Assembly (NCBI GenBank): GCA_947522735.1
Contig: CANNTZ010000002.1
Location: forward strand, 1 to 64,000
DNA: 64,000 bases
Reading direction: 5' to 3'
Source of the DNA: an uncultured Oscillospiraceae bacterium
GTDB lineage: Bacteria; Bacillota; Clostridia; Oscillospirales; Ruminococcaceae
Shown: positions 12,698 to 35,510 of the stretch, in pieces
How positions within the stretch are numbered: position 1 is the first letter of the stretch
Layout: every line of letters begins with the position of its first letter
Program-made: the position numbers and the translations under genes
Notes under the pieces: model-generated
Databases searched by the model: none
Told to the model about the DNA's origin: nothing
What the model saw: the letters and a program-made list of their open reading frames with translations, nothing else

Positions 12698-13867
12698 TCA
12701 CAGACCTATCGCTTTCATAAAGCAGTCGTACTCATCGACGCTTTGCGCTTTTGTTTTAGATATCCGCAGCAGCCGCGCAAGCCGATCCGGCAGCAGACGT
12801 ATATTGGCGAGCAGCCGCGCAAGCCACGCAACGGGCAGCAGCCACCGACACTTTTGCAAAAAGGTGTAGCGCCGTTCAAGCTCGTCTGCGGGCGGAAAGA
12901 GCATTCTGCAAACGAGCTGCCGCTTAGAGCCGCGCTTCTCCCCCGCATTGCGCAGCTCTACCACCGAGCGGTCGCGGGAATGTCCAAACAGGTCGGAGTC
13001 GAGGGTATAATCGAGCAGACGATCCAGCGTCTCGACGTCCGGCTCCGGCAGCGGGCAAAGAGTGCTGACGCCGAACCATACGCGGCAGGCGTTCATCACG
13101 GTGTGGAAAAAGTCCGTCAGGCGCAGCGCGGCAAACTCTTTTTCGATGGCGAGCCAGTTCAGGCGCGCATCCTCGCGCTTTACATACAGCGCCGCGTCCA
13201 GATACATCCGCAGTCCCGCGCCTCCGCGATAGAGATGCTTTGCCAGGTGGCACACGGTGTAGATGAAGTGAAAATCCGGCGCAGGCCGGTACCGCAGGCC
13301 CTCATCCGGCTCCGCATACCGCCACGCGCCGTCGAAATACGTCTGCATATCTGCGCGCCCGTCCAGATTGCCGTCCATCAGCATAGTGTGTATTTCGTAA
13401 TACTCCGCGTCCTTTAGATAGGAATAGGACGGCTCCCAGTCGTGCTCAGCCGTATAACCGAGGGACAGCATCAGCTCATGCGTTTTCCTGCGGTCCTCCG
13501 GACGGATGAGGATATCGATGTCGCCGAAGGTGCGCAGCTCCGGCACGGGATAAAGCGCGCGGAGGTAGTAGCCCTTGACCGGCATATGGGCGACACCGTG
13601 CTCCGTAAAGACCTGTGAGAGCGTCTCAAAGGCCGTGCAGCGGTTGAGGTTGCCGACAAGCGCCGCGTACAGTATGCCGTTGAGCCTGCGGCAGAGCTTT
13701 GCGTCCCCAAGCATCCCCCAACGCCTGTTCTCATACGCCAGAACCGGCAGCAGATTCTGCCGCGCGGCCTCCGGCCACAGCGTTCGTATATTCGATTGAT
13801 CTATCCTCTCCGGCGGCGCGTCCTGTACAAAGCTGCGCAGCGGCACGAGAAGCTGTTTGTTCGACAT
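12698..13867 (-). CDS. uncharacterised nucleotidyltransferase-family protein (last gene of polysaccharide operon)
   Basis: GDIDILIRPED pol-beta-type nucleotidyltransferase motif; 389 aa. Confidence 0.6.
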   Translation of the reverse strand: MSNKQLLVPLRSFVQDAPPERIDQSNIRTLWPEAARQNLLPVLAYENRRWGMLGDAKLCRRLNGILYAALVGNLNRCTAFETLSQVFTEHGVAHMPVKGYYLRALYPVPELRTFGDIDILIRPEDRRKTHELMLSLGYTAEHDWEPSYSYLKDAEYYEIHTMLMDGNLDGRADMQTYFDGAWRYAEPDEGLRYRPAPDFHFIYTVCHLAKHLYRGGAGLRMYLDAALYVKREDARLNWLAIEKEFAALRLTDFFHTVMNACRVWFGVSTLCPLPEPDVETLDRLLDYTLDSDLFGHSRDRSVVELRNAGEKRGSKRQLVCRMLFPPADELERRYTFLQKCRWLLPVAWLARLLANIRLLPDRLARLLRISKTKAQSVDEYDCFMKAIGL

Positions 13868-13884: not shown

Positions 13885-14758
13885 TTAATTTTGGGGCGTC
13901 AATTCGACCACCGCAATCTCCGGCCGGTTGTTTATCCTCGGGATCGGGCCATGTCCGGCAAGTCCGGAGGTGATAATCATCTGCATATGCTCGCCCAGCC
14001 GGAAGCAGCCGCGGTCATATTCCGGGAACCAGCCCTGCATGGGCGCGTACAGGCCGCCGATAAACGGCAAACGGATCAGTCCGCCGTGTGTGTGGCCGCT
14101 GAGCACAAGCTCCACGTCCCACATGTCGTATGCTCCGTTGAAGATGAAGGTGTCCGGCATATGTGCAAGACAGATTTTAGGTACGCCGGTGTTCTCAAAG
14201 TCCTTCAGAAACCTGTATTCCGGCGACGAGGTAAACTCCTCCTCGCTGCGGCCAAAATAGAAGCCGTATCCCATTGTGCCGCCGATGCGCAGCGGCTGAC
14301 CGTTGACTGCTATGTCCACATAGCTGTCGTTTACCACCGTTGCACCTGTCCGGGCCACACGGTCAAGAAGAGTATCGTCGGCTTTCATATATTCTAGCTC
14401 GTGATTGCCGGGCGCAAAATATACAGGTGCTATCTCGCACAGCCCTTCAAGCAGTTGCAGGAGCTTCTGCACCTCCTCCTCATCCGCGCTGCGGTCAAGC
14501 ATATCGCCGGCAAGCAAGATTACGTCCGGGGACTGCGAGCCGACCCTTGCAATCAGACGGGAGTTGTCCCTGCCGAAGGTTCTTCCGTGCAGGTCGGAGA
14601 GGAGGACGAGGCGGATGGGTGTCCAGAGCTTTTCCATGGAGACGGCGTATGAGCTTGTGCTAATTCTGACGTTGTCAAGCAGGACAGACAGAAAAATGGC
14701 GGCAAGGCAGACGACTGTCATGACGGCGACGCTTGCTAAGCTGTGCTTCATACCGTTC
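13885..14758 (-). CDS. membrane-anchored metallophosphoesterase (calcineurin-like)
   Basis: LSDLHG, GDMLDR, GNHE, SGHTHGG motifs; N-terminal TM helix. Confidence 0.8.
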
Positions 14759-15653
14759 ATCCGATGTGAAAAATGCGCGGCAGCCTGTTCCATCCACGCC
14801 TGATAAAGCGTGCCGCATGGCCACATGCCGCGGCCGCGCCGTATTTTGCCTTATTCAGAAAAAGCGCCCAGACAGAGCCGCCCTGCTCCATCGTGTGCAG
14901 ATCGTCCACCTGTTTTCGATAAAGAGGCGTTTGCGTAAACCTTGTCCCCCAATGGAGCAGATCGGTTTTTACGCCGATATCCTCTGCAAGCGCAAGCCCC
15001 TTGGGCAAATTCAGCCGCATTCGTCCGAGATGCTCCCAATAGCACAGGATCCCCTGCAAATCATGCGGAATCGGCTTGCATCCGTTCAAGGCCATGCCAA
15101 GTGCGACCAGCGGCTCATCCCCTGGCGTTGCGAATTTTCCCTTGAAACGATAAGCTCCATAGTGCGGGACCAGCTCCTGCGCCGTTTCCAGCACCGCTTT
15201 GCACCGCACCGTTTTTCGCATATAATAGATCCCCCCGTGGAGCCCCACCACATAGGAGACCCTCTCCTTCAAGTCCCCCAGATTCTTGTACTCAAACCAG
15301 CCGGTCGTATCGTCCAGCGGCAAAACCCGGCCAAAGCAGGAAAAGTCATCCGCCTCCCGAAACAGCTCGAACAGCCGGTTCAGGTCGCCATAGGCCAGAC
15401 AGTCTGCGTCAATGAAGATGTTCACGTCATACGGTAAAAGCTCGAGCATCTCCAGCTTGTCCAGATAGCTGCGGTGCGCTTGCGAAAAAACGCGCACATC
15501 ATCGAACTCCGCCGTATATCCGTTCTCCTGATCCGCCAGAATCGCAAACGGAAGCGGAGAACTGCAAAACCAGCGGTACGAGTGCAGGAGGTTTGCTGCC
15601 ATTTTATAATACTGTGCGTCGCCGGTGGCGATGGTGACAAAGCCGTGCGTCAT
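14757..15653 (-). CDS. putative glycosyltransferase (GT8-like nucleotide-diphospho-sugar transferase fold)
   Basis: FVTIATGDAQYYKMAANLLHS N-terminal GT8-like pattern and FIDADCL DxD motif; AAGGAG RBS. Confidence 0.45.
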   Translation of the reverse strand: MTHGFVTIATGDAQYYKMAANLLHSYRWFCSSPLPFAILADQENGYTAEFDDVRVFSQAHRSYLDKLEMLELLPYDVNIFIDADCLAYGDLNRLFELFREADDFSCFGRVLPLDDTTGWFEYKNLGDLKERVSYVVGLHGGIYYMRKTVRCKAVLETAQELVPHYGAYRFKGKFATPGDEPLVALGMALNGCKPIPHDLQGILCYWEHLGRMRLNLPKGLALAEDIGVKTDLLHWGTRFTQTPLYRKQVDDLHTMEQGGSVWALFLNKAKYGAAAACGHAARFIRRGWNRLPRIFHIG

Positions 15654-15659
15654 AAGGTA

Positions 15660-16643
15660 TCACTCCTTAAACCCAAGGATTTTTCGGATTTTGACCAGAT
15701 AGGCGTATGGTCTGACCAGCCTCGGGCAGACCAGTGATAGATACCAGCTAAAGGTATCATAAACGCAGGATCTGCGTATATGCCGCAATGCAGCCAGTTT
15801 GTGGATGCGATACTCCGTGGGAATCCGGTCGGATTGCCTGCTGCCATAAGCGCGAATTACCGTTTTGGCCTGCGCGACCCTTTGGGCGTTTCGCGCCAAT
15901 TCCGCAAGCTCCCGGTCATTTTCCGTATCGAAGAATTGCACGCAGGCTTGAACCGCCCTAACACAATCGAAGCTTTTGACGGAAAAGGGGCGCCCTGTAA
16001 TGCTGTCAGGCCGCGTCCGGTAAAGGTAGAGCTTATCCGGTATAAGACCAACGGCATTTGATCGATAAAGCAACCTCGGTGTTGTCGCGTCATCCTCATG
16101 GATCAGCCCGACCGGATAACGAATCCCGTCAAACAGCCTTGCCGGATATAGCTTTCCCCATGCCATAATGGGCACCTCGCCATCCATGTGATAAATGCTC
16201 AGGCATGCCTCCCGTCCGGTCATTATTTTCAACTGCGTCGCGGCGCACGCATCCACGCATTCGAGCTCGCTCTCATCCGAAAAGGGCCGCATATCGCAGA
16301 CGGCGATATCAACGTTTTCCTGAACAACAGTGTCATGCAGCCTTTTCAGACAGGCGGGCGCAAGCAGGTCGTCACTATCTGCAAACGCAAGATATTCCCC
16401 GGAGGCCGCATCGATTCCGGCGTTTCTTGCCGCGGACAGTCCCCTGTTTTCCTGATGGATTACCCGCACGCGCGGATCCTGTTCCGCATATTCATCACAG
16501 ATTGCTCCGCAGCCGTCCGGCGAACCGTCGTCCACGAGGATCAGCTCAAAATCCGTATAGGTCTGCGCAAGAATACTGTCCACGCATTGACGCAGGTAAG
16601 GCTCTACCTTGTAAACCGGGACTATCACGGATATCGTCGGCAT
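15660..16643 (-). CDS. glycosyltransferase family 2
   Basis: ISVIVPVYKVEPYLRQCVDSILAQTYTDFELILVDDGSPDG...DSDD; AGGGGATGA RBS before MPTISV. Confidence 0.85.
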   Translation of the reverse strand: MPTISVIVPVYKVEPYLRQCVDSILAQTYTDFELILVDDGSPDGCGAICDEYAEQDPRVRVIHQENRGLSAARNAGIDAASGEYLAFADSDDLLAPACLKRLHDTVVQENVDIAVCDMRPFSDESELECVDACAATQLKIMTGREACLSIYHMDGEVPIMAWGKLYPARLFDGIRYPVGLIHEDDATTPRLLYRSNAVGLIPDKLYLYRTRPDSITGRPFSVKSFDCVRAVQACVQFFDTENDRELAELARNAQRVAQAKTVIRAYGSRQSDRIPTEYRIHKLAALRHIRRSCVYDTFSWYLSLVCPRLVRPYAYLVKIRKILGFKE

Positions 16644-16651
16644 ATTGTCAT

Positions 16652-17710
16652 TCATCCCCTGAAATCCAGAATATCTTTCTTCAAAATTTCCCTGTATGGA
16701 AGCAATGCTTCGTTGTCATATCGGTTTTCGCCCTTCGGCATGTCTGCATACAGCGCCTCTATCTGCTCGGCTGTATCTGCAAAGCGAATATAGTCTAAAT
16801 GGCGAACCCATTCGTAACAGCCGCGCACCTTATGGCTTTTGCTGTTTATCACAATACAAGGAGTTCCCGTGACAGCCGCAAAGATCATCCCGTGAAGCCG
16901 GTCTGTTATAACAAGCTGCGCTCCTCTGAACTCATCGAGCTTTGCCTCCAGCTCTTGTATACGCTTATCCGGTAAAACGCCGTGCTCCAGACACATGTCG
17001 GTATATTTTACCTGCTCGCAAAACAGGCCTTGAGCCGATTTCAGAATTTGCTTTTCATCCTTCTCGCTGCGTGTTTTTTCAAGGTCGCTGCGCAGACAGA
17101 GCAGACACCCTGTTCTGTTTTTTTTCACCTGCGACTTATTCATAAACAGCGCCATATCCGGCACGAGCTTTACATTGCGATATATCCCGCTCATAACGCT
17201 GTAGGAGGTTTGTTCCCTCGCATACAGCAGCAGCGCCGGATGATGCCTGTAGATTCCTTTTGAGCGCTCTAATTCACGGCTGCCCCACTCGGTCTTTTCA
17301 TAAAATACAGTATTCGGAAGACAAAATATAATTGATTTTGGGTTTTCGCGAATTATGCACCGGAACAGCCTCTCCACATTGAACCACAGCGTTCCCATGT
17401 TTCCCCCGCCGTTGACAATGATTTTATGTCCGTTCATAGCTCCGAGCCTATGAAAACGCTTTAACCGGCGCAGCTGTATCGTTGTGAGCTCAATGTATTC
17501 GAGCTTCATCTCCGTCAACAGCTCTGTTGCTGACAGCGCAATCGCATGGTCTCCCAAATTGCCGTGTGACGGAGATAATACAAAGAGAACCGTACTTTCA
17601 TCCGCCTCCTTCAACCGCTTGCATATGTCCTTGACCTCTTTCCATTCTCTATCGGCCTCGTACATACGGCCGTGCAGCCTTCGCAAGGGCATCAGAAAAT
17701 CAGCAGCCAT
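16652..17710 (-). CDS. polysaccharide pyruvyl transferase (CsaB/WcaK family)
   Basis: ITDRLHGMIFAAVTGTPCIVINSKSHKV signature of PS_pyruv_trans; GAGGGGAG RBS. Confidence 0.8.
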   Translation of the reverse strand: MAADFLMPLRRLHGRMYEADREWKEVKDICKRLKEADESTVLFVLSPSHGNLGDHAIALSATELLTEMKLEYIELTTIQLRRLKRFHRLGAMNGHKIIVNGGGNMGTLWFNVERLFRCIIRENPKSIIFCLPNTVFYEKTEWGSRELERSKGIYRHHPALLLYAREQTSYSVMSGIYRNVKLVPDMALFMNKSQVKKNRTGCLLCLRSDLEKTRSEKDEKQILKSAQGLFCEQVKYTDMCLEHGVLPDKRIQELEAKLDEFRGAQLVITDRLHGMIFAAVTGTPCIVINSKSHKVRGCYEWVRHLDYIRFADTAEQIEALYADMPKGENRYDNEALLPYREILKKDILDFRG

Positions 17711-17726
17711 AAACACAGCTCCCCTC

Positions 17727-18998
17727 TCAGCCGATCGTTATTTCCGGGAACATCATATATCCCCACCAGGTATGGTTCCACGCCATGTTGTTGTTTTCCC
17801 GGTTGCCCTGCCCCTTCTCAAAGGCAAACGCCTCCTCCACCACGTCGTGCATCTGGTTTGCTCCAAATTGGTTCACCGAGTAAGCGGTCAGCTTCACAAG
17901 ATACTTTCCGGGCGCAAGCCAATCTATCAGCAGTGTCAAAGCGATTTCATTTTCCCCGGCATCCGCCATGATGGAGGGACTGGAGGTTGCAAGACCAACC
18001 ACCGTTTTATCGGCAGCCTCCACGGTCATGCGGAATGCCATATTCTCGACCGGCACCCTTGCTTTATATGAAACCCTCACATGAACCGGCTCTTTTCCGG
18101 TGTATACGGCAGTATCCTTGTCCAGCAGCGAGACCGTGCAAATATGTATCCGGCCGTCCATGATGGCGTGAGTCCGCTTTGCTTCCGAGCAATCGTTGAC
18201 AAGCGCCGGCGCTCTGGTCATATCCGAGTAGAGCTCAATCGCCCTCTCCACATTTCCGTCAAACATGAGCCTTCCGTGATCCAGCACGATGCAGCGTGTG
18301 CAAAGCTGACGGATGGTGTTCATATTATGGCTGACATAGAGCACGGTGCGTCCCCCGGAGCCTGCGGCGTCGCCCATTTTGCCAAGGCATTTCTGCTGGA
18401 ACTTCATATCGCCCACGGCCAAAACCTCATCCATGACCATGATCTCGCTGTCCAGATGCGCGGCCACAGCAAAAGCCAGCTTGACATACATGCCGCTGGA
18501 ATAGCGCTTGACCGGCGTGTCGATGAATTTTTCCATCTCCGCGAACTCGACGATCCGGTCAAACTTGCTATCGATCTCCGCCCTTGTCATGCCCAGAATC
18601 GCGCCGTTCATGTAGACGTTTTCCCGCCCGGTCAGCTCCGGATGGAAGCCGGTTCCAACCTCCAGCATGGAGGCGATGCGGCCGTTATAGCTGACGGTTC
18701 CCCTCGTCGGCGCGGTGACGCGGGAAAGCAGCTTCAAAAGCGTGGATTTGCCCGCGCCGTTGTGACCTATGATCCCCAGCGCCTCGCCCTTTTTCACCTC
18801 AAAGGACACGTCGTCCAGCGCAAGGAACCTTTCTCCCCCATGCGCCGCCGTGTCGGAGCCGATCTTGCTGTTGGGGTCCTCCCTGCCCTTTATCCGCGCC
18901 ATCCAGCTTTGCAGATCTCCCCGCAGCGTGCCGCCGCCAATCGCACCTAAACGGTATTCCTTGGAGACATGCTCGATTTTGATTGCAATTTCATCCAT
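17727..18998 (-). CDS. polysaccharide/teichoic-acid export ABC transporter ATP-binding protein (Wzt/TagH-like, with C-terminal extra domain)
   Basis: Walker A GHNGAGKST, signature YSSGMYVKLAFA, Walker B MVMDE; ~170-aa C-terminal domain. Confidence 0.85.
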   Translation of the reverse strand: MDEIAIKIEHVSKEYRLGAIGGGTLRGDLQSWMARIKGREDPNSKIGSDTAAHGGERFLALDDVSFEVKKGEALGIIGHNGAGKSTLLKLLSRVTAPTRGTVSYNGRIASMLEVGTGFHPELTGRENVYMNGAILGMTRAEIDSKFDRIVEFAEMEKFIDTPVKRYSSGMYVKLAFAVAAHLDSEIMVMDEVLAVGDMKFQQKCLGKMGDAAGSGGRTVLYVSHNMNTIRQLCTRCIVLDHGRLMFDGNVERAIELYSDMTRAPALVNDCSEAKRTHAIMDGRIHICTVSLLDKDTAVYTGKEPVHVRVSYKARVPVENMAFRMTVEAADKTVVGLATSSPSIMADAGENEIALTLLIDWLAPGKYLVKLTAYSVNQFGANQMHDVVEEAFAFEKGQGNRENNNMAWNHTWWGYMMFPEITIG

Positions 18999-19007
18999 AA
19001 GCTTTCC

Positions 19008-19868
19008 TCAGACCGTATCCATAAATGTTTTTTCCACCCGGCTGAACATCACCACGCCAATAAACAGGATCACGAGAGTAGTTCCCCAGCCGGCTAAATA
19101 ATAGCTCCACTCAACCGCTCCGGTTCCCAGATAGGCATAGCGGAACAGGTTGATGATGGGCGAGATCGGGTTGCACATATACAGCGCGTGCCACCTGCCG
19201 CCGGGAGCAAGGGCGGCGAAGCGAAACATATCGTAGGCAATTGGCGAGCCATACATCCAGAGCTGCACGCCGAAGCCCACCAGCATGGCGAGGTCGCGGT
19301 ATTTCGTCGTCAGTGCGGAGATGATGATGCCGCAGCCAAGGCTCAGTATGGCGAGCTGGAGCACGATGAGCGGCGTCATAAGCATCCACAGGTTCGGACA
19401 GACTCCCTGTCCCGTGACGGCATAGTAAACAAGAAATATCACCAGAAAGCCATATTGAATGGCAAGGCTGATGAGCTCGGAAAGCACAGTGGAGATCGGC
19501 ATGACGAGGCGCGGGAAATAGACCTTACCCATCGTGGCGCTGTTGGCGACGAAGGTGTTCGCCGTCTGTGTCAGGCAGTTGGAGAAGTATGTCCACAGAA
19601 CCGTGCCGGAAAGATAGAAAACGAAGGACGGCATCCCCTGCGGCGCAAGCCCGGCGATGTTGCCGAACACCAGCGTGAACACAACGGTTGTCAGCAACGG
19701 CTGTATGACGGCCCACAGCGGGCCGAGGATCGTCTGCTTGTATTTTGACACGAAATTTCGCCTCACAAACAGCAGGATCAGGTCGCGATAAGCGAAAACC
19801 TCTTTGATATGCAGGTCAAACCAGCCGCTTTTCGGCTTGATGACCGTGGTAAAACGCTGTTCTTCCAT
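19008..19868 (-). CDS. ABC-2 type polysaccharide export permease (Wzm/TagG-like)
   Basis: 6 predicted TM helices, ABC-2 family pattern, adjacent to Wzt-like ATPase. Confidence 0.8.
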   Translation of the reverse strand: MEEQRFTTVIKPKSGWFDLHIKEVFAYRDLILLFVRRNFVSKYKQTILGPLWAVIQPLLTTVVFTLVFGNIAGLAPQGMPSFVFYLSGTVLWTYFSNCLTQTANTFVANSATMGKVYFPRLVMPISTVLSELISLAIQYGFLVIFLVYYAVTGQGVCPNLWMLMTPLIVLQLAILSLGCGIIISALTTKYRDLAMLVGFGVQLWMYGSPIAYDMFRFAALAPGGRWHALYMCNPISPIINLFRYAYLGTGAVEWSYYLAGWGTTLVILFIGVVMFSRVEKTFMDTV

Positions 19869-19882
19869 AGTGACTCCTTTTG

Positions 19883-21055
19883 TTACAGCAGAGCATACAG
19901 CTTTTGCAATATTGCGGCGTTATCGCGTTCAAAAGCATGGCTGCGCAGCGCAGCGCGGAAGGCGTTGCGCTGCTCCGGCGCGTGGTAAAGCCGCTTCACT
20001 GCTTCGGCAAGCGACGCCGCCTCCGGCTCGCAGAGCAGACCGGTCCGGCCGCTCTCTATCTGTTCCTCGGCGGCATTTCGGGTCGCCAGAATTGGCGCCG
20101 CCAGCAGCCGCGCCTCCAGAACCGTGACGCAATGCCCCTCAAACCGGCTGGGCTGCACATACAAATCCGCCTGTCGTATGTAGGGATACGGATTATCCTG
20201 CATTCCCAGCAGCGTAACACGCTCCTCCAGCCCAAGCGCATGGAGCTGCTCCCGCAGAGCAGCCTCCTCCGGCCCTCCGCCGATAATCCACCAGTGGATA
20301 TTGGCGTAACCGTCCCGTACCAGTCTTGTGCAGGCCTCAACGGCAAGGTCCATGCCCTTGGCGTAAGACAGCCGCCCGCAGGATACGATATTGAACCGCT
20401 CCTTTGGAAAAACCGTTTTCGGCTCTTCAAGGCTCTTTTCCCTCACGCCTGCAATATCGATCAGATTATTGACTGCGATGATTTTTTCCGCGTATTGCGG
20501 GCGATACCTCCTAAGCTTTTCCGCAAGAGCCTCCGACACGGCGACAATCTTTTCCGCTTTTAGATAGCCATATATATCGTGATACTCCCGCCGCATTGCG
20601 CCGTGATGATAAAACATCAGAAAGCGGTCTGCGCAGACTGCGCGAACGGCTGTCTCCGCCGCTCGGTCGCTGTAAATAACCGCCGTATCAAAATGCTCGC
20701 CGTCAAGCCGCTTTTTCACATAGGCGGCATAGAGCCCTGCCTCCGGCGCGCGCAGTGCAAGCCGCAGCATACGCCATATCAGACGCCGCAGCCCCGAGGC
20801 GTTTTGCGGCTCCTCCATGAGGTTGTACATCCGCTTATGGCGGTATGCGTCCGGGAATGTCGCCGGATGCTGCCGGTCAGCGACAAGCAGGCGGCACTTT
20901 TGTGTGATGCGCCCTGCCATTTCCTGACTGTCGCGCAGGATCAGGCAGGTTGCGTCGTATTTGTCATAGTCCAGACGGTTCAGCAGATTTACCAGCGCCG
21001 TCTCGATCCCGCCGATCCATAGGGCCTCCGTGATGAAGATGAGCTTCTTTTTCAT
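19883..21055 (-). CDS. glycosyltransferase family 4 (GT-B)
   Basis: GT4 C-terminal EGHCVTVLEA...E motif, N-terminal MKKKLIFITEALWIGGIE; ATGA overlap with Stealth stop. Confidence 0.8.
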   Translation of the reverse strand: MKKKLIFITEALWIGGIETALVNLLNRLDYDKYDATCLILRDSQEMAGRITQKCRLLVADRQHPATFPDAYRHKRMYNLMEEPQNASGLRRLIWRMLRLALRAPEAGLYAAYVKKRLDGEHFDTAVIYSDRAAETAVRAVCADRFLMFYHHGAMRREYHDIYGYLKAEKIVAVSEALAEKLRRYRPQYAEKIIAVNNLIDIAGVREKSLEEPKTVFPKERFNIVSCGRLSYAKGMDLAVEACTRLVRDGYANIHWWIIGGGPEEAALREQLHALGLEERVTLLGMQDNPYPYIRQADLYVQPSRFEGHCVTVLEARLLAAPILATRNAAEEQIESGRTGLLCEPEAASLAEAVKRLYHAPEQRNAFRAALRSHAFERDNAAILQKLYALL

Positions 21056-22053
21056 AATTCAAACCCGCTCTTCTCCGGCAAAATCATCTCGAATGCGCCC
21101 TGTAGTCGTGCAGACAGCTTTTCAAAATCCACCGGCTCCTCCGGGTCGTTTATGCAGAGCATATCGTGGCTCTGCTCCCGAATGATACTACACAGCTCAT
21201 CCACCGTGCTCTCGTCGGCGCAAAGCACTGCATTGTCCGTGTTATACGGTGCAAACTGTCCGCTTGCCACCTGCCACCACAGGCACACCCACTGGTTAAC
21301 ATCCTCCGCACTGCGGAAGCGGTGAGCCGTGGTGCGCGCCAGCAGCTCCGGCTCGGTGTTCCAGACAGCCTCGAAGGTGCTTTTGCAATACGCCGCCGGG
21401 GCGTGCAGGTTTCTGAAGCCGGTAAATCGGCTTGGAAACAGCTTTTCCAAGGCCCTGGTGCGGATGTTGTCCTGCCAGCGGTAGGCGCGGTCGACATATC
21501 TTCTCCCGTATTTTTTCACCTGCTCACGCTTGTCAAAATGCGCGTTGACGACGCCCAGACCGTTTACCGCCGCGTGCTGCCATATGCCGATGCTTCCGAC
21601 AAGCTCTATAGGATGCTCTCCGCCGCAGGTGCAGGGCAGACCGTCCCGGAAAAACGCCGTCTTCGGCGCCGGGCGGAGCAGGAACATATCGTCGTTGAAG
21701 TATACAAAGCGCTCCGCAAGCCCCGGGATGCGGTGCATATTCATCTCGATGGCGTGGGAGCTGAAGGTTGGCAGCGCTTCCTGCGGCATGAAATCCTCAT
21801 GCCGCACATGGTGCAGCTTGGGATGCTTCAGGTTCAAAAATGCCGGGAAGTGCCCACAGGTGACAAAATGGATCCTCCGCACCCACGGCGCAAACCTCTC
21901 CGCCGCACGGAACCAGTAGGGCATCAGCCCCCAATCCCGAAAACGGTTGGGCGCGTTGCTGCCGTCCTGCGTTTTCCCCTGATATTTTGCCTTTTCCCTC
22001 TGCCAGACAGGATCGTTTCCGTCCACCCACAGGACGACAAAATCTATCTCCAT
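21052..22053 (-). CDS. Stealth-family hexose-1-phosphate transferase (capsule phosphotransferase CR1-CR4)
   Basis: DFVVLWVDGNDPVW (CR1), NRFRDWGLMPYWFRAAERFAPWVRRIHFVT (CR2), FNDDMFLL (CR3); GGAGG RBS. Confidence 0.7.
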   Translation of the reverse strand: MEIDFVVLWVDGNDPVWQREKAKYQGKTQDGSNAPNRFRDWGLMPYWFRAAERFAPWVRRIHFVTCGHFPAFLNLKHPKLHHVRHEDFMPQEALPTFSSHAIEMNMHRIPGLAERFVYFNDDMFLLRPAPKTAFFRDGLPCTCGGEHPIELVGSIGIWQHAAVNGLGVVNAHFDKREQVKKYGRRYVDRAYRWQDNIRTRALEKLFPSRFTGFRNLHAPAAYCKSTFEAVWNTEPELLARTTAHRFRSAEDVNQWVCLWWQVASGQFAPYNTDNAVLCADESTVDELCSIIREQSHDMLCINDPEEPVDFEKLSARLQGAFEMILPEKSGFEL

Positions 22054-29461: not shown

Positions 29462-31057
29462 TCAGAACGGTCTGATAGACGTAATAAAGTAATATATCCT
29501 GTCCATCCACATCCGCTTATTGTTGTGTGCAACGTCCTTCACGCTGATATTTGTCGCACCGATTGCGGGACAAAGCTCATGCGTAAAATCGATATGCGTC
29601 CGGTCTGCAATACGATCCTTCAACGGAACCGTCAGCATCATATCGGCAAGCTGCCGGTTGTTATACGGTACCGTCACATCGTGCGAAAACATGTGCTCGC
29701 AGCTCAGGACGTCGGCGCCCCAGCGGCTGTCCCTCATTTCAAGGTCTATGACGTCGCTCCAGTCGTAATTGAACATGTGCTCGTTATAGGCGGTGCTCCG
29801 CAGATAATCCCGATAGCGGGCATCCGTCGCGTACATCAGCGCGGGATTCATCAGAAAAATGTTGTTCATTGCGTTGACCCGCCGTGCCGTACATTTTTTC
29901 TGCATATGCCGCACACCGTAGCGCTTGTAGTAAAAGGCACGCCCTACCTCCGACGTCCACGACTTTACCTCAATATCAAACGGGTCGGCCTTCCTCAGGT
30001 ATATCCGTTTCATTATATCGTTATGGTTGAAATAAAGGCGGTTGCTGTTCACGCACAGGATCGCTCTTACCAGCTCATATTCCTGGCAGGTCGACCTGTC
30101 CAGCGGGATATCATAGGTTACATGCGGAGCTCCGACCGCCCGGCAGATAGCTTCCGCCGCATCGCAGTCCACTTTTTCGGCCGGCTGCGAGTTATAGGAG
30201 AAATACTGATATCGCTCCTTCACATGGATTGAGGCTGCCAGCGAGCCCTTGCTGTCCCGGCCCCCCGTCACAGACACGGCGGGGCGCGCCCATTTCTGCG
30301 AAATCAGGCTAAGGCTGTTTTTCATGATCTCGGCGATTTCATGGACCGTTTTGCGATATTCCGAGTCATTATCACACATGGTCAGGGGCTTGCGCGGCCA
30401 GATGCGAACCGTTTTGAACGTCCCGTCAGCGTAGACGGCATAATTGTTGCAGACCAGCTTTTTCAGCTCATGATAATGACTGATATCTCCGGGCAGGCCC
30501 TCGCCGTACAGACGGTACCAGCGATAATGCTCAAGCCTTGTTACATAGTCGTCGCGATGAAGCGTCTCAAGCTGCGCAACCAGTTCCTCGTGGGAGCAGA
30601 GATAAAAATGGCTGTTGACGTTTCCGTAGTAGGCGGTGCGCATGCTTTCAAAGTCGCCGCAAAAGGTCGCATGCTCTCCGGAAAGCATGCCTATTATAAA
30701 CAATCCCGTAAGCTTGTTTATAATTTCAAGGCCAGCTTCAAAGCAGCCCCGCGACCGCTCTGCAAGCGCGCACAGAATATCCCTCTCGTCTCTCCGGCCG
30801 GAAAACGGATCATACGCATGTCCTATCAGGAAGTAGGTCGTTCCGTTTTTTGAGGCGACATATAACCTCTGCCGGCAGTGAAGCCAGATATTAAAATTGT
30901 CCGAAAGCGACTCCCGCCGCCAGTTCCCGAAAAACGGAAACCTATCATCGATTGAGAGCTCCCGATCGGTGATCAGAAATCCCTGTTCGAAGATGGCGGA
31001 TTTGTATTCCGGAAAACGCTCGATATTTTCTTTTATATACGGCCAGTTTTCATTCAT
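29462..31057 (-). CDS. uncharacterised 531-aa protein with central PP-loop-like ATP pyrophosphatase motif (asparagine-synthetase-like C-domain without glutaminase domain)
   Basis: AVSVTGGRDSKGSLAA resembles SGGxDS PP-loop at ~residue 255; no N-terminal Cys glutaminase; ATGA overlap with upstream dehydrogenase. Confidence 0.5.
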   Translation of the reverse strand: MNENWPYIKENIERFPEYKSAIFEQGFLITDRELSIDDRFPFFGNWRRESLSDNFNIWLHCRQRLYVASKNGTTYFLIGHAYDPFSGRRDERDILCALAERSRGCFEAGLEIINKLTGLFIIGMLSGEHATFCGDFESMRTAYYGNVNSHFYLCSHEELVAQLETLHRDDYVTRLEHYRWYRLYGEGLPGDISHYHELKKLVCNNYAVYADGTFKTVRIWPRKPLTMCDNDSEYRKTVHEIAEIMKNSLSLISQKWARPAVSVTGGRDSKGSLAASIHVKERYQYFSYNSQPAEKVDCDAAEAICRAVGAPHVTYDIPLDRSTCQEYELVRAILCVNSNRLYFNHNDIMKRIYLRKADPFDIEVKSWTSEVGRAFYYKRYGVRHMQKKCTARRVNAMNNIFLMNPALMYATDARYRDYLRSTAYNEHMFNYDWSDVIDLEMRDSRWGADVLSCEHMFSHDVTVPYNNRQLADMMLTVPLKDRIADRTHIDFTHELCPAIGATNISVKDVAHNNKRMWMDRIYYFITSIRPF

Positions 31058-31938
31058 TCAAGGCCCTCCCGTATCTCCTCCCACAGCCGCGCCCGGTTTC
31101 CGTCGCCTACAAAGCCGTTGTGCGGGGTCAGAATCACGTTTTCCATATCCCACAGCGGGCTTTTTTCCGACAGCGGCTCCTCCTCGAACACATCCAGCGC
31201 CGCTCGGCCCCCGGATAGCAGCCATGCAGTCAGGGCGGCCTCGTCCGCAAGCGCGCCGCGGGCAATGTTTACGAATATCGCGTCAGGGCCCAGCCGCTCA
31301 AAAACAGCCTTGTTCACGATGCCGCGGGTTTCCGGCGTCAGGGCGATGCAGCAGATCAGAATATCACAGAAAGCCGCGACGGCCGGGAGCTTGTCAAGCG
31401 GCAGAAGCTCCTCAAAATCCGGCAGCCTTCGCACCGTGCGGTTCACTCCGGTGATTCGGCAGCCAAAGGCTTGCAGTCGTTTTGCAATTTCCTGTCCCAC
31501 GTCGCCGCAGCCGAGAATGCACACCCTCTTGTCTGTCAGCTCCAGAAGGCCGCGGTGCTTTTCCCACCTGTGCCGTCTTTGATTCGCCGCGAAAAAGCGG
31601 CTCTGCTTATAAAGCTGTAAAATTCCGCAGACGGCGAGCTCCGCCACAGGGACGCTGTACACGCGTGCGGCGTTGTGCAGTTCAATGCCGCGAGCACGGA
31701 TATAATCCAGCGGCACGCGGTCAAGTCCCGCGCTGGTGAGCTGAATCAGCCTGAGCCTCGTGAAGCGCTCGATGGGGGTATATTGAAACAGGCCGTTACA
31801 GACCACCGCCTCGTAACGCTCGGGAGCCGGCACCGGCTCGCGCTCGTCCCGGTGAAGGGCGACAGTGTGCCCAGCGGCCTCCAGCTCCGCTTTTTCGGCG
31901 GGCTCAAGCGGAAATGCTCCGGTAATCAGGATGTTCAC
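31054..31938 (-). CDS. D-isomer-specific 2-hydroxyacid dehydrogenase family (NAD-dependent)
   Basis: Rossmann ILGCGDVGQEIAKRLQAFGC; catalytic R/E/H arrangement (NVILTPH). Confidence 0.8.
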   Translation of the reverse strand: MNILITGAFPLEPAEKAELEAAGHTVALHRDEREPVPAPERYEAVVCNGLFQYTPIERFTRLRLIQLTSAGLDRVPLDYIRARGIELHNAARVYSVPVAELAVCGILQLYKQSRFFAANQRRHRWEKHRGLLELTDKRVCILGCGDVGQEIAKRLQAFGCRITGVNRTVRRLPDFEELLPLDKLPAVAAFCDILICCIALTPETRGIVNKAVFERLGPDAIFVNIARGALADEAALTAWLLSGGRAALDVFEEEPLSEKSPLWDMENVILTPHNGFVGDGNRARLWEEIREGLE

Positions 31939-32759
31939 ACTCTCATCTCCCTCACTATCTCCCCGACGCGCGCAACAACCCGACGGCGGTTATCCTCAAG
32001 CTGCTCCTGAGCCCACGCGGCGCACTCCCCTTCCACGCGCCTTATGTCCGCAATGCCTCCGGTAAAAATGCGCCGCAGCTCCCGTAGATCGGCGACTCTG
32101 TGCGAATCGCAGAAGCTGCGGGACAGAATGACATACTGCGAGCCAAGGCGAACGTGCTCTCCGATGATAAGCTCCGCGGGGAGCGTTCCGCTTCCCGGAC
32201 GTCCGACGCCGCCAAAGCCGCAGGGAATATTGGCATCCTGAAGCTGTCTGCAAAGACGTTCCACAGTGCCGTCCGCAAGCAATTGAAACATGAAGCTCAT
32301 ATTATAGCACAGATGCAGGTCGTTGAGGCCGATGTGCATTTCGTCGATTCCGGGAACGGCAAGCGCCTGAGCAAGCGATCTTGCCGCTTCGTCCGTCTCC
32401 AGCAGCGGCATGGTCCTTGCACGCCCGCCGACGATATCCGCAAAACGCCGCAGCTCGTCCGCCGTGCGCCACATCGGGAGCATTATCACATCCGCACCGC
32501 TTTCGATGGAGGCGTCGATCTCCGCCTGCGAGCTCGGGTTCAACGGATCGATCCGCGCCATGACCTCCGCGCGGCCTCCTATAGCCTCGCGAACTCTTGC
32601 AATGTCCTCCTGCGTGTGGTGCGACTGCACCGTATCTCTGCCCCGCTGGCGCTCCGTCTTCCCCAGCGCCTCCATATCGATGAATATACGATCCACGCCC
32701 GCGTCAACGGCAATTTTCGCCACATCCGGAGCGTTCGTTATGTACATCAGTTTAAGCAT
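31935..32759 (-). CDS. HpcH/HpaI aldolase / citrate-lyase beta-like family protein
   Basis: TIM-barrel class II pyruvate aldolase-like pattern (FIDMEALGK, MLPMWRTADE, ETDEAA). Confidence 0.55.
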   Translation of the reverse strand: MLKLMYITNAPDVAKIAVDAGVDRIFIDMEALGKTERQRGRDTVQSHHTQEDIARVREAIGGRAEVMARIDPLNPSSQAEIDASIESGADVIMLPMWRTADELRRFADIVGGRARTMPLLETDEAARSLAQALAVPGIDEMHIGLNDLHLCYNMSFMFQLLADGTVERLCRQLQDANIPCGFGGVGRPGSGTLPAELIIGEHVRLGSQYVILSRSFCDSHRVADLRELRRIFTGGIADIRRVEGECAAWAQEQLEDNRRRVVARVGEIVREMRV

Positions 32760-32768
32760 ACCGTCTCC

Positions 32769-33383
32769 TCAGACCGTCGCTCCCACGTTTTCGTTGTCAT
32801 CGTTGCGAACAACTCTCTTAACGGTGAGCCACAGTATCTTCAAATCAAAGGCAAGGCTGCAATGCTCCGCATAATATACGTTCAGCTCGATGCGTCTGTG
32901 CCATTCCACCGTCTTTCTGCCGTTGACCTGCGCCCATCCGGTTACGCCCGGACGGACCTCGAACATGCGAAGCTGCTCTGCGGTATACTGCTCGAACGGC
33001 CACGGATGATAGGTCAGCGGAGGACGCGGGCCGATTATCGCCATATCTCCCTTTAGTATATTAAAAAGCTGCGGAAGCTCGTCGATGCTTGTCGCGCGGA
33101 TAAGCTTTCCCACCTTCGTCACGCGCGGGTCGCCCTTTTCGCTGTATACGCCGCTGCCGGTGTGCTCCGCGCCCACCTTCATCGAGCGGAATTTGTAGAT
33201 TGTGAACTCCTTCCCGTGCAGGCCCAGACGCCGTTGCCTGAAAAGCGCCGGGCCGGGCGAGGTCAGCCTGACGGCAAGAGCCACCCCCAGAAGCAGCGGA
33301 GACAGGAGCACGAGCGCGACCGCCGAAGCAACGATGTCGAGCGCACGTTTGCCAAATCTTTTGTACATCTGTCCGAAATCCAC
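32769..33383 (-). CDS. undecaprenyl-phosphate sugar phosphotransferase (bacterial sugar transferase, PglC/WbaP C-domain type) - priming enzyme
   Basis: single N-terminal TM, KFRSM, DELPQLFNILKGDMAIIGPRP signature. Confidence 0.85.
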   Translation of the reverse strand: MDFGQMYKRFGKRALDIVASAVALVLLSPLLLGVALAVRLTSPGPALFRQRRLGLHGKEFTIYKFRSMKVGAEHTGSGVYSEKGDPRVTKVGKLIRATSIDELPQLFNILKGDMAIIGPRPPLTYHPWPFEQYTAEQLRMFEVRPGVTGWAQVNGRKTVEWHRRIELNVYYAEHCSLAFDLKILWLTVKRVVRNDDNENVGATV

Positions 33384-33493: not shown

Positions 33494-33523
33494 AATCATA
33501 CCATTTTTTAGCGATAATTGCAA
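33494..33523 (-). promoter_or_regulatory. sigma70 promoter of polysaccharide operon
   Basis: minus strand TTGCAA-17-TGgTATGAT (extended -10); ~105-nt GC-rich structured leader before priming transferase start. Confidence 0.55.
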
Positions 33524-33560: not shown

Positions 33561-34421
33561 TTATTCACTTCCGCCGCTCCGTTTTTCCGTTTGGGGCAGC
33601 ACCTGCTCTGCAAAATATTTCCTCTGTGCAGCGGCAAACCAGCGTTCAAAGGCTTGAGACGCCCTGCGACTGACTTTCAAGAGCGGAAGCAGCATGTCAA
33701 ACGCGTGGAACAGTCCCGGGTAGATGTCGATATCCGCCGCAACGCCCGCCTTTCTCAGGTTATCGATATAATCGACCGTCTCCGCATAGAACGGCTCGTT
33801 TGTCGAAACAAAGGTGTAGGCCGGAGGAAGCCCGGAATAGTCTTGCCTTCGAGCCGGCGCGGCATAGCACGGGATCTCCCGTCCCGCAAGACCGCGAAGA
33901 TATTTTGACCAGCCGCGATGATTGCGACGCGTGTTCCAGACCGGCGCGCGATTATCCCTTGAGGTCTCCGTGTCCTCGTTGTCGAGCATCGGATAAAGCG
34001 GCATCTGTGCGGCAAGCCGTACGCCGCCGTTGTCGTACTCATACATGCACAGCGCCGCGGCAAGCCCGCCGCCTGCGCTCTCCCCGCCGACCATTAGCTG
34101 CTCGGAGCGGACGCCGAGCCTTTCGGCGTGTTCTCTGAGCCACAGGAGCGCGTTGTGGCAGTCGATGAGCGCCGCTGGATAGGGAGCCCTTCCCGACAGC
34201 CTGTATCCGGGAGCGGCTACGACGGCGCCGAAGCGCTTAACAAGCGCCCTTGCGCGGGAAATATAGACCATTTCCGCCATGCCTGTGACATATCCGCCCC
34301 CGTGGAGCCACAATATGCCCGTTCGCTTTTCTGCGGGCGCGCTCCCGGCCGGCGACAGGAGGATGAGCTTCATCCGGTATCCGTCCGAGTATATATATTC
34401 TCTTTTCGACCGGTATCTCAT
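33561..34421 (-). CDS. alpha/beta hydrolase fold-3 esterase/lipase
   Basis: HGGGYVTG oxyanion motif, GGESAGGGL nucleophile elbow (GxSxG). Confidence 0.8.
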   Translation of the reverse strand: MRYRSKREYIYSDGYRMKLILLSPAGSAPAEKRTGILWLHGGGYVTGMAEMVYISRARALVKRFGAVVAAPGYRLSGRAPYPAALIDCHNALLWLREHAERLGVRSEQLMVGGESAGGGLAAALCMYEYDNGGVRLAAQMPLYPMLDNEDTETSRDNRAPVWNTRRNHRGWSKYLRGLAGREIPCYAAPARRQDYSGLPPAYTFVSTNEPFYAETVDYIDNLRKAGVAADIDIYPGLFHAFDMLLPLLKVSRRASQAFERWFAAAQRKYFAEQVLPQTEKRSGGSE

Positions 34422-35317
34422 AGTTGACCGTTCGCTTTCAGAAACTCCGCCATTTCGGCGTTCGCCCGCTGCGCCTCCGGCGTTTCCGGCAGCATGGCGG
34501 CAAAGGCGTGCGGCAGCTTTTTCCCGGCCTCCATGTCAAGCAGCCTGTGTTTTGCTCCGTTCCTCGCGAGCGCCGAAGCGAACCGGCGGCTGTAGCAGCG
34601 TAGAAAATCCCCCTTTGCCGTGACAAGAAAACAGGGCGGCAGGCTTTGCGTCAGCTCCGGCACCTCCGGGTCGGTGTACCGGCAAAAGCCGCGCCTGCGC
34701 CAGCCCTTTCCGTAAATCATATTCGGCAGGAAAAGCCCTATTTTATCCGGCCTGCGGGTGTAAAACATACCGCTCTGTAGGCCGAGCGCGCCAATCCTGC
34801 ACCGCACCGGCCCTGTGCCTGCGGCTTTCGCCATTTGGGCGCTGTTCTGTATCGCCGCAAGGTAGACGCAGAGATATGCTCCCGCGCTGTCGCCGCACAG
34901 ATAAAGGCGGGAGGCGTCGCCGCCATATTTCTCCGCAAGCTCGCACGCGCGGTCTATACCGGCGGTCAGGTCACGGAATATATCAAAGATATCCGCCTTT
35001 GGAGCCAGCGGATATTCAATGCAGAACACAACGAAGCCCCTTTTGCACATATCTGCACAAAACAGGCGATTCACCTCCTTCTTTCCCAGAAGAAATCCTC
35101 CGCCGTGGATATCAATCAGCACCGGAAGCTTTTCGCGGCTTTCCTCCGGCCTGTAGATATCTATCCTATGGCAGGGCTTTCCGTCGCCCACGTAGTCCAC
35201 GTCCGCCGTCAACCGGACGTCCTCCGGAAACGGATTTTCCCTGTCGTGCTTTTCCTGCCAGCTCTCAAGCATCCGCTCCTGCTTTTCCGTCTGTTTTTTC
35301 ACCATATTTTCAAGCAT
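34418..35317 (-). CDS. alpha/beta hydrolase fold-3 esterase/lipase (paralog)
   Basis: IHGGGFLLG, CGDSAGAYL (GxSxG); start MLENMVKK with ACGGAGGC RBS. Confidence 0.75.
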   Translation of the reverse strand: MLENMVKKQTEKQERMLESWQEKHDRENPFPEDVRLTADVDYVGDGKPCHRIDIYRPEESREKLPVLIDIHGGGFLLGKKEVNRLFCADMCKRGFVVFCIEYPLAPKADIFDIFRDLTAGIDRACELAEKYGGDASRLYLCGDSAGAYLCVYLAAIQNSAQMAKAAGTGPVRCRIGALGLQSGMFYTRRPDKIGLFLPNMIYGKGWRRRGFCRYTDPEVPELTQSLPPCFLVTAKGDFLRCYSRRFASALARNGAKHRLLDMEAGKKLPHAFAAMLPETPEAQRANAEMAEFLKANGQL

Positions 35318-35510
35318 ATCGGGCCTCCGTTTTAAATGATACGACTTGACCTGCATAGCGCGTCTGCAATTGGACGGGCGATATTGCATTGCGCCTGTCG
35401 ATGATTTCTCCAAAAAGGGCGGGATCGCCATATTCTGCTCATCCCGCCCCGTTCAGTTGTGTTATACACACAAAAACGCTTTTAAAAATTCCTTTTATTT
35501 GTATGCCGTC

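Follow-up and report, generated by a model that had tools for sequence, protein, structure and literature searches.

A conserved five-gene cassette of gut Clostridia and other phyla that probably makes the first sugar of a surface polysaccharide with an acid or amide group

We analyzed a 64,000-nucleotide stretch of DNA from an uncultured Oscillospiraceae bacterium (contig CANNTZ010000002.1 of assembly GCA_947522735.1, positions 1 to 64,000; hereafter the window) that carries, within a polysaccharide region of about 12.7-33.4 kb, three adjoining genes coding for an aldolase-like protein (ALD), a dehydrogenase (DH) and a PP-loop protein (PPL). Together with the priming phosphoglycosyl transferase (PGT) gene that precedes them and the GT4 glycosyltransferase (GT4a) gene that follows them, they form a cassette, found in dozens of microbes from the gut and the environment, whose probable role is to build an unusual first sugar, with an acid or amide group, for a surface polysaccharide. 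Specifically, we propose that the PGT-ALD-DH-PPL-GT4 cassette serves to make a non-standard sugar and to install it as the first residue of the repeat unit, and we assign the full model, set out below, a probability of roughly 40%. The three proteins belong to known superfamilies, and we found no earlier description of the cassette, of the PPL family or of the proposed chemistry; a literature search for HpcH-type aldolases and 2-hydroxyacid dehydrogenases in a capsule context found nothing relevant.

The cassette and its conservation in glycan loci

The genes of the cassette, and a promoter-like site in front of them, are as follows.

33383..32769 (-): PGT, small monotopic priming phosphoglycosyl transferase, 204 amino acids, first gene of the cassette (Bac_transf 223 bits in Pfam, EPS_sugtrans 280 bits in NCBIfam)
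32759..31935 (-): ALD, divergent HpcH/HpaI-like divalent-metal pyruvate aldolase-type TIM barrel, 274 amino acids
31938..31054 (-): DH, NAD(P)-dependent D-isomer-specific 2-hydroxyacid dehydrogenase, 294 amino acids, GTG start
31057..29462 (-): PPL, glutaminase-dead adenylating enzyme of the asparagine synthetase B (AsnB) fold, 531 amino acids
29446..28319 (-): GT4a, GT4 glycosyltransferase and probable second-step transferase, 375 amino acids (Glycos_transf_1 111 bits, Glyco_trans_4_2 67 bits)
33495..33523 (-): promoter-like site TTGCAA-17-TATGAT with TG, in the 177-nt gap upstream of PGT (consensus scan)

An earlier sequence-only reading of this stretch had placed three translationally coupled genes between the priming transferase and the glycosyltransferases. 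The limits that it gave for the three open reading frames (274, 294 and 531 amino acids, minus strand) are exact, and so is their position, with PGT ending 9 nt before ALD in a spacer that contains GGAG, and GT4a starting 15 nt after the end of PPL. The ATGA overlaps that it described are seen by direct reading of the sequence for the DH stop and PPL start, whereas the ALD stop and DH start share GTGA, the DH start codon being GTG. Downstream of GT4a there follow a GT2, two GT4s, an EpsG-type polymerase, a second GT2 and an acyltransferase.

A genome scan returned 80 species-level loci, 79 of which have an intact PPL gene, and the counts given here are over these 79. The lineages represented are Oscillospiraceae, Acutalibacteraceae, Lachnospiraceae, Christensenellaceae, Muribaculaceae, Rikenellaceae, WOR-3, TA06, Melainabacteria, a Pacearchaeota metagenome-assembled genome (MAG) and Jeotgalibacillus. 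ALD, DH and PGT are all found near PPL, within about 8 kb, in 47 loci, and in 33 of the 53 loci that have at least 5 kb on both sides. The trio is a conserved module of polysaccharide loci. The common order is PGT-ALD-DH-PPL-GT4, with PGT-ALD-PPL-DH as an alternative; the gene just before PPL is DH in 27 cases, ALD in 11 and TviB in 11, and the gene just after it is most commonly GT4a (24), then TviC (12) and DH (10). A gene for GT4a or for the related GT4 family f8 occurs in 61 loci, and ALD and DH accompany PGT even where other genes separate PPL from them. A chance arrangement is ruled out by the recurrence of the same genes in the same order in 47 of 79 loci from several phyla. That central-metabolism genes are merely located in a polysaccharide operon, a view with generic family names and nothing more in its favor, is extremely improbable, and is effectively refuted by the cross-phylum gene order, the start/stop overlaps and the confinement of these genes to glycan loci. 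One metagenomic locus (L094:2926-4338, P0235) has a 470-amino-acid reading frame in which PGT and ALD are fused in the order seen for the separate genes.

Within the cassette, PPL is the gene that differs most from locus to locus. Relative to the window, the L030 locus has 72% identical ALD, 78% identical DH and 74% identical PGT with a PPL of only 35% identity, whereas L004, with ALD, DH and PGT identities as in L030, has a PPL of 80% identity; across L030, L083, L044 and L034 the PPL identity is 33-36% as compared with about 70-78% for ALD, DH and PGT. PPL is diverging much faster than its neighbors, and therefore lies in a variable, type-specific part of the locus. This pattern of sequence identity suggests a recombination boundary between DH and PPL. 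Tandem PPL paralogues, present in six loci (L048, L055, L058, L071, L072 and L082), hint at more than one substrate or nucleophile specificity per locus.

ATP-grasp ligases, often as immediate neighbors of PPL, are found in 23 loci, and are of the sugar-transfer-associated ATPgrasp_ST family (PF14397; L005, L006, L036, L037, L050, L054, L068, L075, L077 and L080) or the TupA-like family (PF14305; L012, L015, L020, L024 and others). Further ATP-dependent ligation may occur at the same site. LicD occurs in only about 12 loci, and in several cassette loci it is accompanied by a 614-amino-acid protein of family f26 (L042, L045, L052, L056 and L059; e.g. L042:7346-9190) that by sequence looks like a fusion of a nucleotidyltransferase with a class I/II aminotransferase-like domain; f26 and LicD may form a separate phospho-alcohol decoration route. 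PPL homologues are also seen in other settings, namely beside a Mur ligase (L013:6478-7941), beside a macro-domain protein (L064:7019-8092), in a haloarchaeal glycan cluster of Natrinema beside a flippase and rml genes (L093, 21% identity), and in an Alistipes MAG between a PglF-like dehydratase and FnlA/B/C-like N-acetyl-L-fucosamine genes (L047).

Families and folds of PPL, ALD and DH

PPL has no match in Pfam, in NCBIfam or in a direct sequence search of the PDB, and a profile search with it yields marginal PP-loop matches alone (QueC, NadE and CarA). Its AlphaFold model, made with 34 homologues in the alignment, has a predicted local distance difference test score (pLDDT) of 94.6, and over its full length Foldseek aligns this model, with E-values of about 1e-13, to AsnB, TsnB9, carbapenam synthetase and beta-lactam synthetase. 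The TGGRDS motif that the sequence-only reading had picked out as PP-loop-like is real, being part of S262-V-T-G-G-R-D-S269, in which the S, G, G, D and S residues are invariant in the 34 homologues. Residues ~231-531 make up the PP-loop synthetase domain and residues ~1-230 an N-terminal nucleophile (Ntn)-like domain without Cys, and hhalign aligns PPL with true AsnBs collinearly across both. At the level of sequence profiles, 15 of the 34 relatives weakly match Asn_synthase (best 1.7e-5) and three match GATase_7; PPL itself has the two-domain AsnB fold with a PP-loop of the SGGxDS type, and gives no AsnB match in Pfam or NCBIfam.

These results overturn the claim that the protein has no glutaminase domain and a novel N-terminal half, as model and sequence together identify that half as a class II glutaminase-like domain that lacks its Cys. 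An N-terminal Cys nucleophile (Met-Cys start) is found in none of the 89 PPL-family members, indicating that PPL is glutaminase-dead, as are CarA and beta-lactam synthetase. The domain is probably no mere vestige, since it has residues that are invariant in the 34 homologues (G79-H80-A81, E91, D135 and Y144). Of the families proposed for comparison, AsnB is thus supported by the fold and by the weak matches of relatives, and the other two are not: a WbuX/PseA-type N-acetyl sugar amidotransferase (TIGR03573) was rejected on the basis of no NCBIfam match, the two domains and the lack of HisH/HisF neighbors, and the LarE sulfur-insertion PP-loop family on the basis of no close fold or sequence match. 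The PPL family is of moderate size: of 1.84 billion cluster representatives searched, 967 match it with E<=1e-3, and the number with E<=1e-30 is 73.

The assignment of ALD to the HpcH/HpaI-type aldolases, also made in the sequence-only reading, holds weakly. ALD scores 30 bits against Pfam HpcH_HpaI (PF03328; cut-off 25), with residues 9-148 in its N-terminal half covered, and a profile of 27 family members run against the PDB finds the class II aldolase YfaU at 3.4e-11 followed by HpaI-type enzymes. The AlphaFold (AF2) model, with a pLDDT of 93.8, has HpcH/HpaI aldolases as its best folds by Foldseek (3qz6, 4mf4, 4b5w and 2vws, TM-score 0.62-0.68); the scores of pyruvate kinase barrels and of acyl-CoA lyase beta subunits are only slightly lower. 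An hhalign comparison with an E. coli HpcH sequence, stretches of which agree with the PDB alignments, gives 97% probability and equates D28/E30 with D42/E44, R69 with the catalytic R70, and E121/D147 with the metal ligands E149/D175. R69, E121 and D147 are invariant in family alignments of 27 and of 25 sequences. ALD is weakly placed in the HpcH/HpaI class II aldolase superfamily, and pyruvate aldol activity is predicted for it. The family also has invariant residues that are absent from ordinary HpaI, namely GFGG 181-184, S213/R214, E201/H202 and K34/R37/Q38, the last of which lie in a low-confidence loop of the model. In the model GFGG and S213/R214 lie where beta-7 and beta-8, respectively, end, the usual phosphate site of TIM barrels, which suggests a phosphorylated or nucleotide substrate. 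Two other assignments were rejected: that of a phosphoenolpyruvate (PEP) mutase, with 17.5 bits against a Pfam cut-off of 31.5, and that of a PEP-utiliser/pyruvate-kinase-type phosphotransferase, for which the motifs are superfamily-wide and the profile and hhalign results favor HpcH, with the pyruvate kinase barrel a close structural second.

DH is, by sequence, unambiguously a D-isomer-specific 2-hydroxyacid dehydrogenase, as had been proposed. It scores 164 bits against 2-Hacid_dh_C and 40 bits against 2-Hacid_dh in Pfam, and its G143xG145xxG148 loop and Arg-Glu-His triad (R227, E254 and H273) are invariant in 20 orthologues. The closest solved relative is phenylpyruvate reductase 8hpg (3.7e-36), and hydroxyphenylpyruvate reductases and broad D-2-hydroxyacid dehydrogenases are also near; these near relatives act on pyruvates with a bulky C3 substituent such as phenylpyruvate and hydroxyphenylpyruvate.

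DH also scores well with the NCBIfam glyoxylate/hydroxypyruvate reductase and phosphoglycerate dehydrogenase models, and this, along with an ALD fold that is nearly as near to pyruvate kinase barrels as to aldolases, could be read to mean that ALD and DH make a simple three-carbon unit (D-glycerate, D-lactate or glycerol phosphate) that PPL activates or attaches. The pneumococcal CDP-2-glycerol system would be a precedent, with Gtp1 as the reductase and Gtp3 as the phosphotransferase, the latter quite possibly a kinase with a different fold. We regard this as very unlikely, given that the cassette has no cytidylyltransferase, that LicD is limited to the loci noted above, that ALD retains the aldolase Arg and metal ligands, and that a phosphotransferase role fails to explain the pairing of ALD with a glutamine-dependent AsnB described below. 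The same low standing is given to a variant in which DH is a 4-ketoreductase for a dehydratase product, as reduction of nucleotide keto-sugars by the 2-hydroxyacid dehydrogenase fold is not known.

A proposed C-branched priming sugar

A first indication of what ALD and DH act upon comes from a PglF/CapD-type 4,6-dehydratase (Polysacc_synt_2, 389 bits) that adjoins the cassette or PPL in eight loci. It is immediately upstream of PGT-ALD-DH-PPL in L011, L018, L050, L060 and L098, the last of these being the cultured Terrisporobacter glycolicus; L029, L047 and L062 have it as a neighbor in differing arrangements. In T. glycolicus, whose PGT and ALD are 61% and 51% identical to those of the window, the PGT gene sits between the PglF-like dehydratase and ALD, and the locus has no aminotransferase, acetyltransferase or short-chain dehydrogenase/reductase (SDR) family reductase. 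In the absence of an aminotransferase or sugar ketoreductase, ALD, DH and PPL are the sole candidates for acting on the 4-keto sugar in this locus, and they take the place that PglE/PglD or EpsN/EpsM have in modules for N,N'-diacetylbacillosamine (diNAcBac). The ties of ALD and DH to PGT, and to the dehydratase in these eight loci, indicate modification of the first nucleotide sugar rather than, at a later stage, the decoration of the polymer that the sequence-only reading had proposed.

A second indication comes from ALD homologues on Rhodobacterales and marine contigs, of which six loci were examined (L088, L089, L090, L091, L096 and L097). They are 39-42% identical, with 46 columns invariant in a joint alignment, and each directly follows a canonical glutamine-hydrolysing AsnB gene (about 610 amino acids), usually overlapping it. 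This pairing indicates that an AsnB-fold enzyme plus ALD is the universal pair and that DH is a Firmicutes-type addition. In four of the six loci (L088, L089, L096 and L097) the operon is DegT(CBS)-AsnB-ALD-NeuB, followed in L096 and L097 by PglD and NeuC, and the operon that holds AsnB-ALD is a legionaminic-acid operon. WbuX/HisH/HisF-type genes for an amidino group are present in several of the six, and a small PGT is encoded close by in most; the L088 plasmid also has O-methyl phosphoramidate (MeOPN)-like genes coding for a PEP/pyruvate-binding kinase, a gamma-glutamyl hydrolase and a cytidylyltransferase.

The chemistry of a known sugar is relevant to this pair. Shewanella putrefaciens A6 contains shewanellose, 2-acetamido-2,6-dideoxy-4-C-(3'-carboxamide-2',2'-dihydroxypropyl)-D-galactose, alongside an 8-epilegionaminic acid derivative (PMC4052302). 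The side chain is a hydrated alpha-keto amide (pyruvamide) linked through its C3 to C4 of a 6-deoxy-N-acetylhexosamine (HexNAc) that retains its C4 hydroxyl. By analogy, this is the product expected if a pyruvate enolate underwent aldol addition to the 4-keto group of a dehydratase product and AsnB then amidated the carboxylate, and the Rhodobacterales AsnB-ALD set is thus a candidate gene set for shewanellose plus 8-epilegionaminic acid. A literature search for 8-epilegionaminic acid together with asparagine synthase and aldolase found nothing relevant.

In the model that we prefer, ALD would bind pyruvate through a divalent metal, and the C3 enolate would attack a nucleotide-linked 4-keto-6-deoxy-HexNAc at its C4 carbonyl. 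This keto-sugar would come from a PglF/CapD-type 4,6-dehydratase, which in the window's genome would be supplied from elsewhere. The addition would give a C-branched sugar with a -CH2-CO-COO- side chain, the 2'-oxo group of which DH would reduce to a D-2'-hydroxyl. PPL would then adenylate the side-chain carboxylate with ATP and form an amide, the nitrogen of which would come from free ammonia or another amine because PPL has no glutaminase nucleophile. PGT would transfer the finished sugar-1-phosphate to undecaprenyl phosphate, after which GT4a would attach the sugar that comes next. Relative to shewanellose, the product would be a reduced analogue. What the analysis shows is the family and fold of each protein, the catalytic residues that are kept, the missing glutaminase Cys and the conserved cassette with its neighbors; the acceptor, the sequence of steps, the source of nitrogen and a dehydratase encoded elsewhere in this genome are inferred.

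The sequence-only reading had proposed a different route in which ALD joins pyruvate to a small aldehyde to form a free 4-hydroxy-2-oxo acid, DH reduces this to a 2,4-dihydroxy acid, and PPL links the acid to an amino or uronic sugar by an amide or ester bond. The enzyme classes fit such a route, small aldehydes are the normal substrates of HpcH-type aldolases, and the ATP-grasp ligases near PPL in 23 of the 79 loci suggest acyl or amide chemistry. We nonetheless consider it unlikely. A Pfam and homology search found no sugar dehydratase, epimerase, uridine diphosphate (UDP)-sugar 6-dehydrogenase or aminotransferase in the polysaccharide region of the window, and no de-N-acetylase is among the proteins encoded there, so that the locus has no aminotransferase, de-N-acetylase or 6-dehydrogenase to supply the acceptor. 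Acyl transfer to sugar amines or hydroxyls by an AsnB-fold enzyme is not known, and the phosphate-site-like invariants of ALD would be unexpected in a small-aldehyde aldolase. The route also leaves unexplained the linkage of ALD and DH to PGT, the upstream dehydratase and the Rhodobacterales pairing with a glutamine-dependent AsnB.

A second alternative arises from the TviB and TviC contexts, and holds that PPL is an ammonia-dependent uronic-acid amide synthetase, analogous to WbpS and WbtH and producing residues of the N-acetylgalactosaminuronamide (GalNAcAN) type, with ALD and DH making an unrelated substituent or precursor of the priming sugar. TviB-like genes are present in 16 of the 79 loci and TviC-like genes in 19, with PPL directly before a TviC-like 4-epimerase in 12; ALD or a TviB-like dehydrogenase, each a carboxylate source, is present in 58, and canonical AsnB genes also lie beside PPL (L019, L035, L025 and L033). 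These TviB/TviC loci show that sugar-borne carboxylates are a common theme of PPL contexts. On the other side, a UDP-sugar 6-dehydrogenase is missing from the window and from most cassette loci, TviB-like and TviC-like genes were sought in the window and none was found, PPL is translationally coupled to DH in the window with DH or ALD immediately upstream in 38 cases, and the PPLs of TviB and ALD contexts are not cleanly separated in a neighbor-joining tree. On balance this explanation appears quite unlikely.

Several observations weigh against the proposed C-branched sugar. To our knowledge, alkylation of a keto-sugar has no precedent among class II aldolases, and HpcH His45 of the D-x-E-H motif is not kept in ALD, which has Ala31 at a position that is variable in the family. 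The dehydratase is found in cis in only about 8 of roughly 55 cassettes, and a Pfam and dedicated search of the 64-kb window found no 4,6-dehydratase or any other SDR sugar enzyme. The fusion of PGT with ALD, seen on one metagenomic contig, may be real or may reflect an error of assembly or in a stop codon. PPL comes immediately after a TviB-like UDP-HexNAc 6-dehydrogenase in 11 loci, usually with a TviC-like epimerase next, and from this context some PPLs probably act on uronic acids. PPL has no BLAST similarity to the ALD-paired proteobacterial AsnB, with an hhalign probability of 25%, indicating that the two are analogues at best. Finally, shewanellose provides a chemical precedent and not a characterised gene family.

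A wider version of this model, toward which we are tentative and which we hold to be somewhat doubtful, is that a C4-branched, pyruvate-derived higher sugar is the capsule priming residue in gut Clostridia and other phyla, that AsnB-ALD is the shewanellose pathway, and that the fast-diverging, in places duplicated, Cys-less PPL variants attach different amines to the carboxylate of the branch, with the conserved N-terminal pocket perhaps holding the amine donor. If true, varied PPL amines would generate serotype diversity, ALD would provide the first demonstrated C-alkylation of a nucleotide keto-sugar by a class II aldolase, there would be a new way to C-branched acidic or amide sugars with genes assigned to shewanellose, and Oscillospiraceae and their relatives would have an unusual first capsule residue that is probably immunologically distinctive. 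The general reading alone describes a widespread uncharacterised tailoring cassette, now annotated as an aldolase, a dehydrogenase and a hypothetical protein, and a PPL family that has no Pfam or NCBIfam model and is present in the glycan loci of abundant, mostly uncultured gut anaerobes. The cultured carriers T. glycolicus and Faecousia intestinalis make direct testing feasible.

Other features of the window were also recorded. The promoter-like site upstream of PGT is plausibly positioned, and in the consensus scan is not set apart statistically from shuffles. Directly upstream of the operon there are two tandem reading frames (33561-35431, minus strand), one of which (33561-34421) codes for an alpha/beta-hydrolase esterase (Abhydrolase_3, Pfam) and the other of which spans 34418-35431; no tie of this pair to polysaccharide genes was seen in other loci. 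Downstream of the cassette there is a second glycopolymer gene set (14757-22053, minus strand) that holds a Stealth-family hexose-1-phosphoryl transferase (21052-22053), a GT4, a GT2, a pair of ABC-2-type permease and ATPase genes assigned by eye (17727-19868), a polysaccharide pyruvyl transferase (16652-17716) and a 298-amino-acid protein without a Pfam match. This set may direct synthesis of an ABC-transporter-dependent phosphoglycan that is distinct from the product of the EpsG/Wzy-type cluster. An NTP_transf_5 (PF14907) "uncharacterised nucleotidyltransferase" lies at the far end of the polysaccharide region (12698-13867), and the same family is present in the L006 locus (L006:70-1182). 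The window starts with a glycyl-radical enzyme (PFL-like plus Gly_radical) and its radical-SAM activase (185-3057), after which there is a 576-amino-acid reading frame without a Pfam match (3987-5717).

Comparison with known systems

The cassette resembles the PglF-PglE-PglD-PglC and EpsC-EpsN-EpsM-EpsL modules for diNAcBac, in which genes for a membrane 4,6-dehydratase, for tailoring enzymes and for a small monotopic PGT are grouped. The first residue made by those modules is a tailored 6-deoxy-HexNAc, as is proposed here. The cassette differs in having, where those modules have an aminotransferase and an acetyltransferase, an aldolase-like protein, a 2-hydroxyacid dehydrogenase and an enzyme of the AsnB fold. 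A dehydratase encoded in cis is seen in only a minority of loci, the window not among them.

ALD shares with the HpcH/HpaI/YfaU aldolases the TIM barrel, the metal-ligand Glu and Asp, the catalytic Arg and a Pfam score above the gathering threshold. It differs from them in its 13-19% identity, in the loss of His45, in the extra glycine-rich and basic motifs, in a C-terminal helical extension of roughly 60 residues, in the location of its gene beside PGT in glycan loci, and in its proposed acceptor, which is a nucleotide keto-sugar instead of a small aldehyde.

CarA and beta-lactam synthetase resemble PPL as members of the AsnB superfamily without glutaminase activity. PPL is only 11-14% identical to them and has no Pfam Asn_synthase match, and it is located in polysaccharide loci whereas they are located in antibiotic clusters, with no intramolecular amine evident for PPL to form a lactam. 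WbpS of P. aeruginosa O6 and WbtH of Francisella are AsnB-like O-antigen amidotransferases. Relative to these and to AsnB itself, PPL lacks BLAST similarity, has no Cys in 89 members and thus no canonical use of glutamine, and has ALD and DH as its usual partners, not uronic-acid genes.

Shewanellose provides a chemical parallel. Shewanellose and 8-epilegionaminic acid occur together, also in a Morganella morganii O-antigen, just as AsnB-ALD occurs with NeuB/NeuC and in some loci with WbuX/HisH/HisF. Relative to the shewanellose-type pair, the window cassette has an added reductase that would leave a 2'-hydroxy group, not a 2'-gem-diol, and a Cys-less enzyme, PPL, in place of the glutamine-dependent AsnB.

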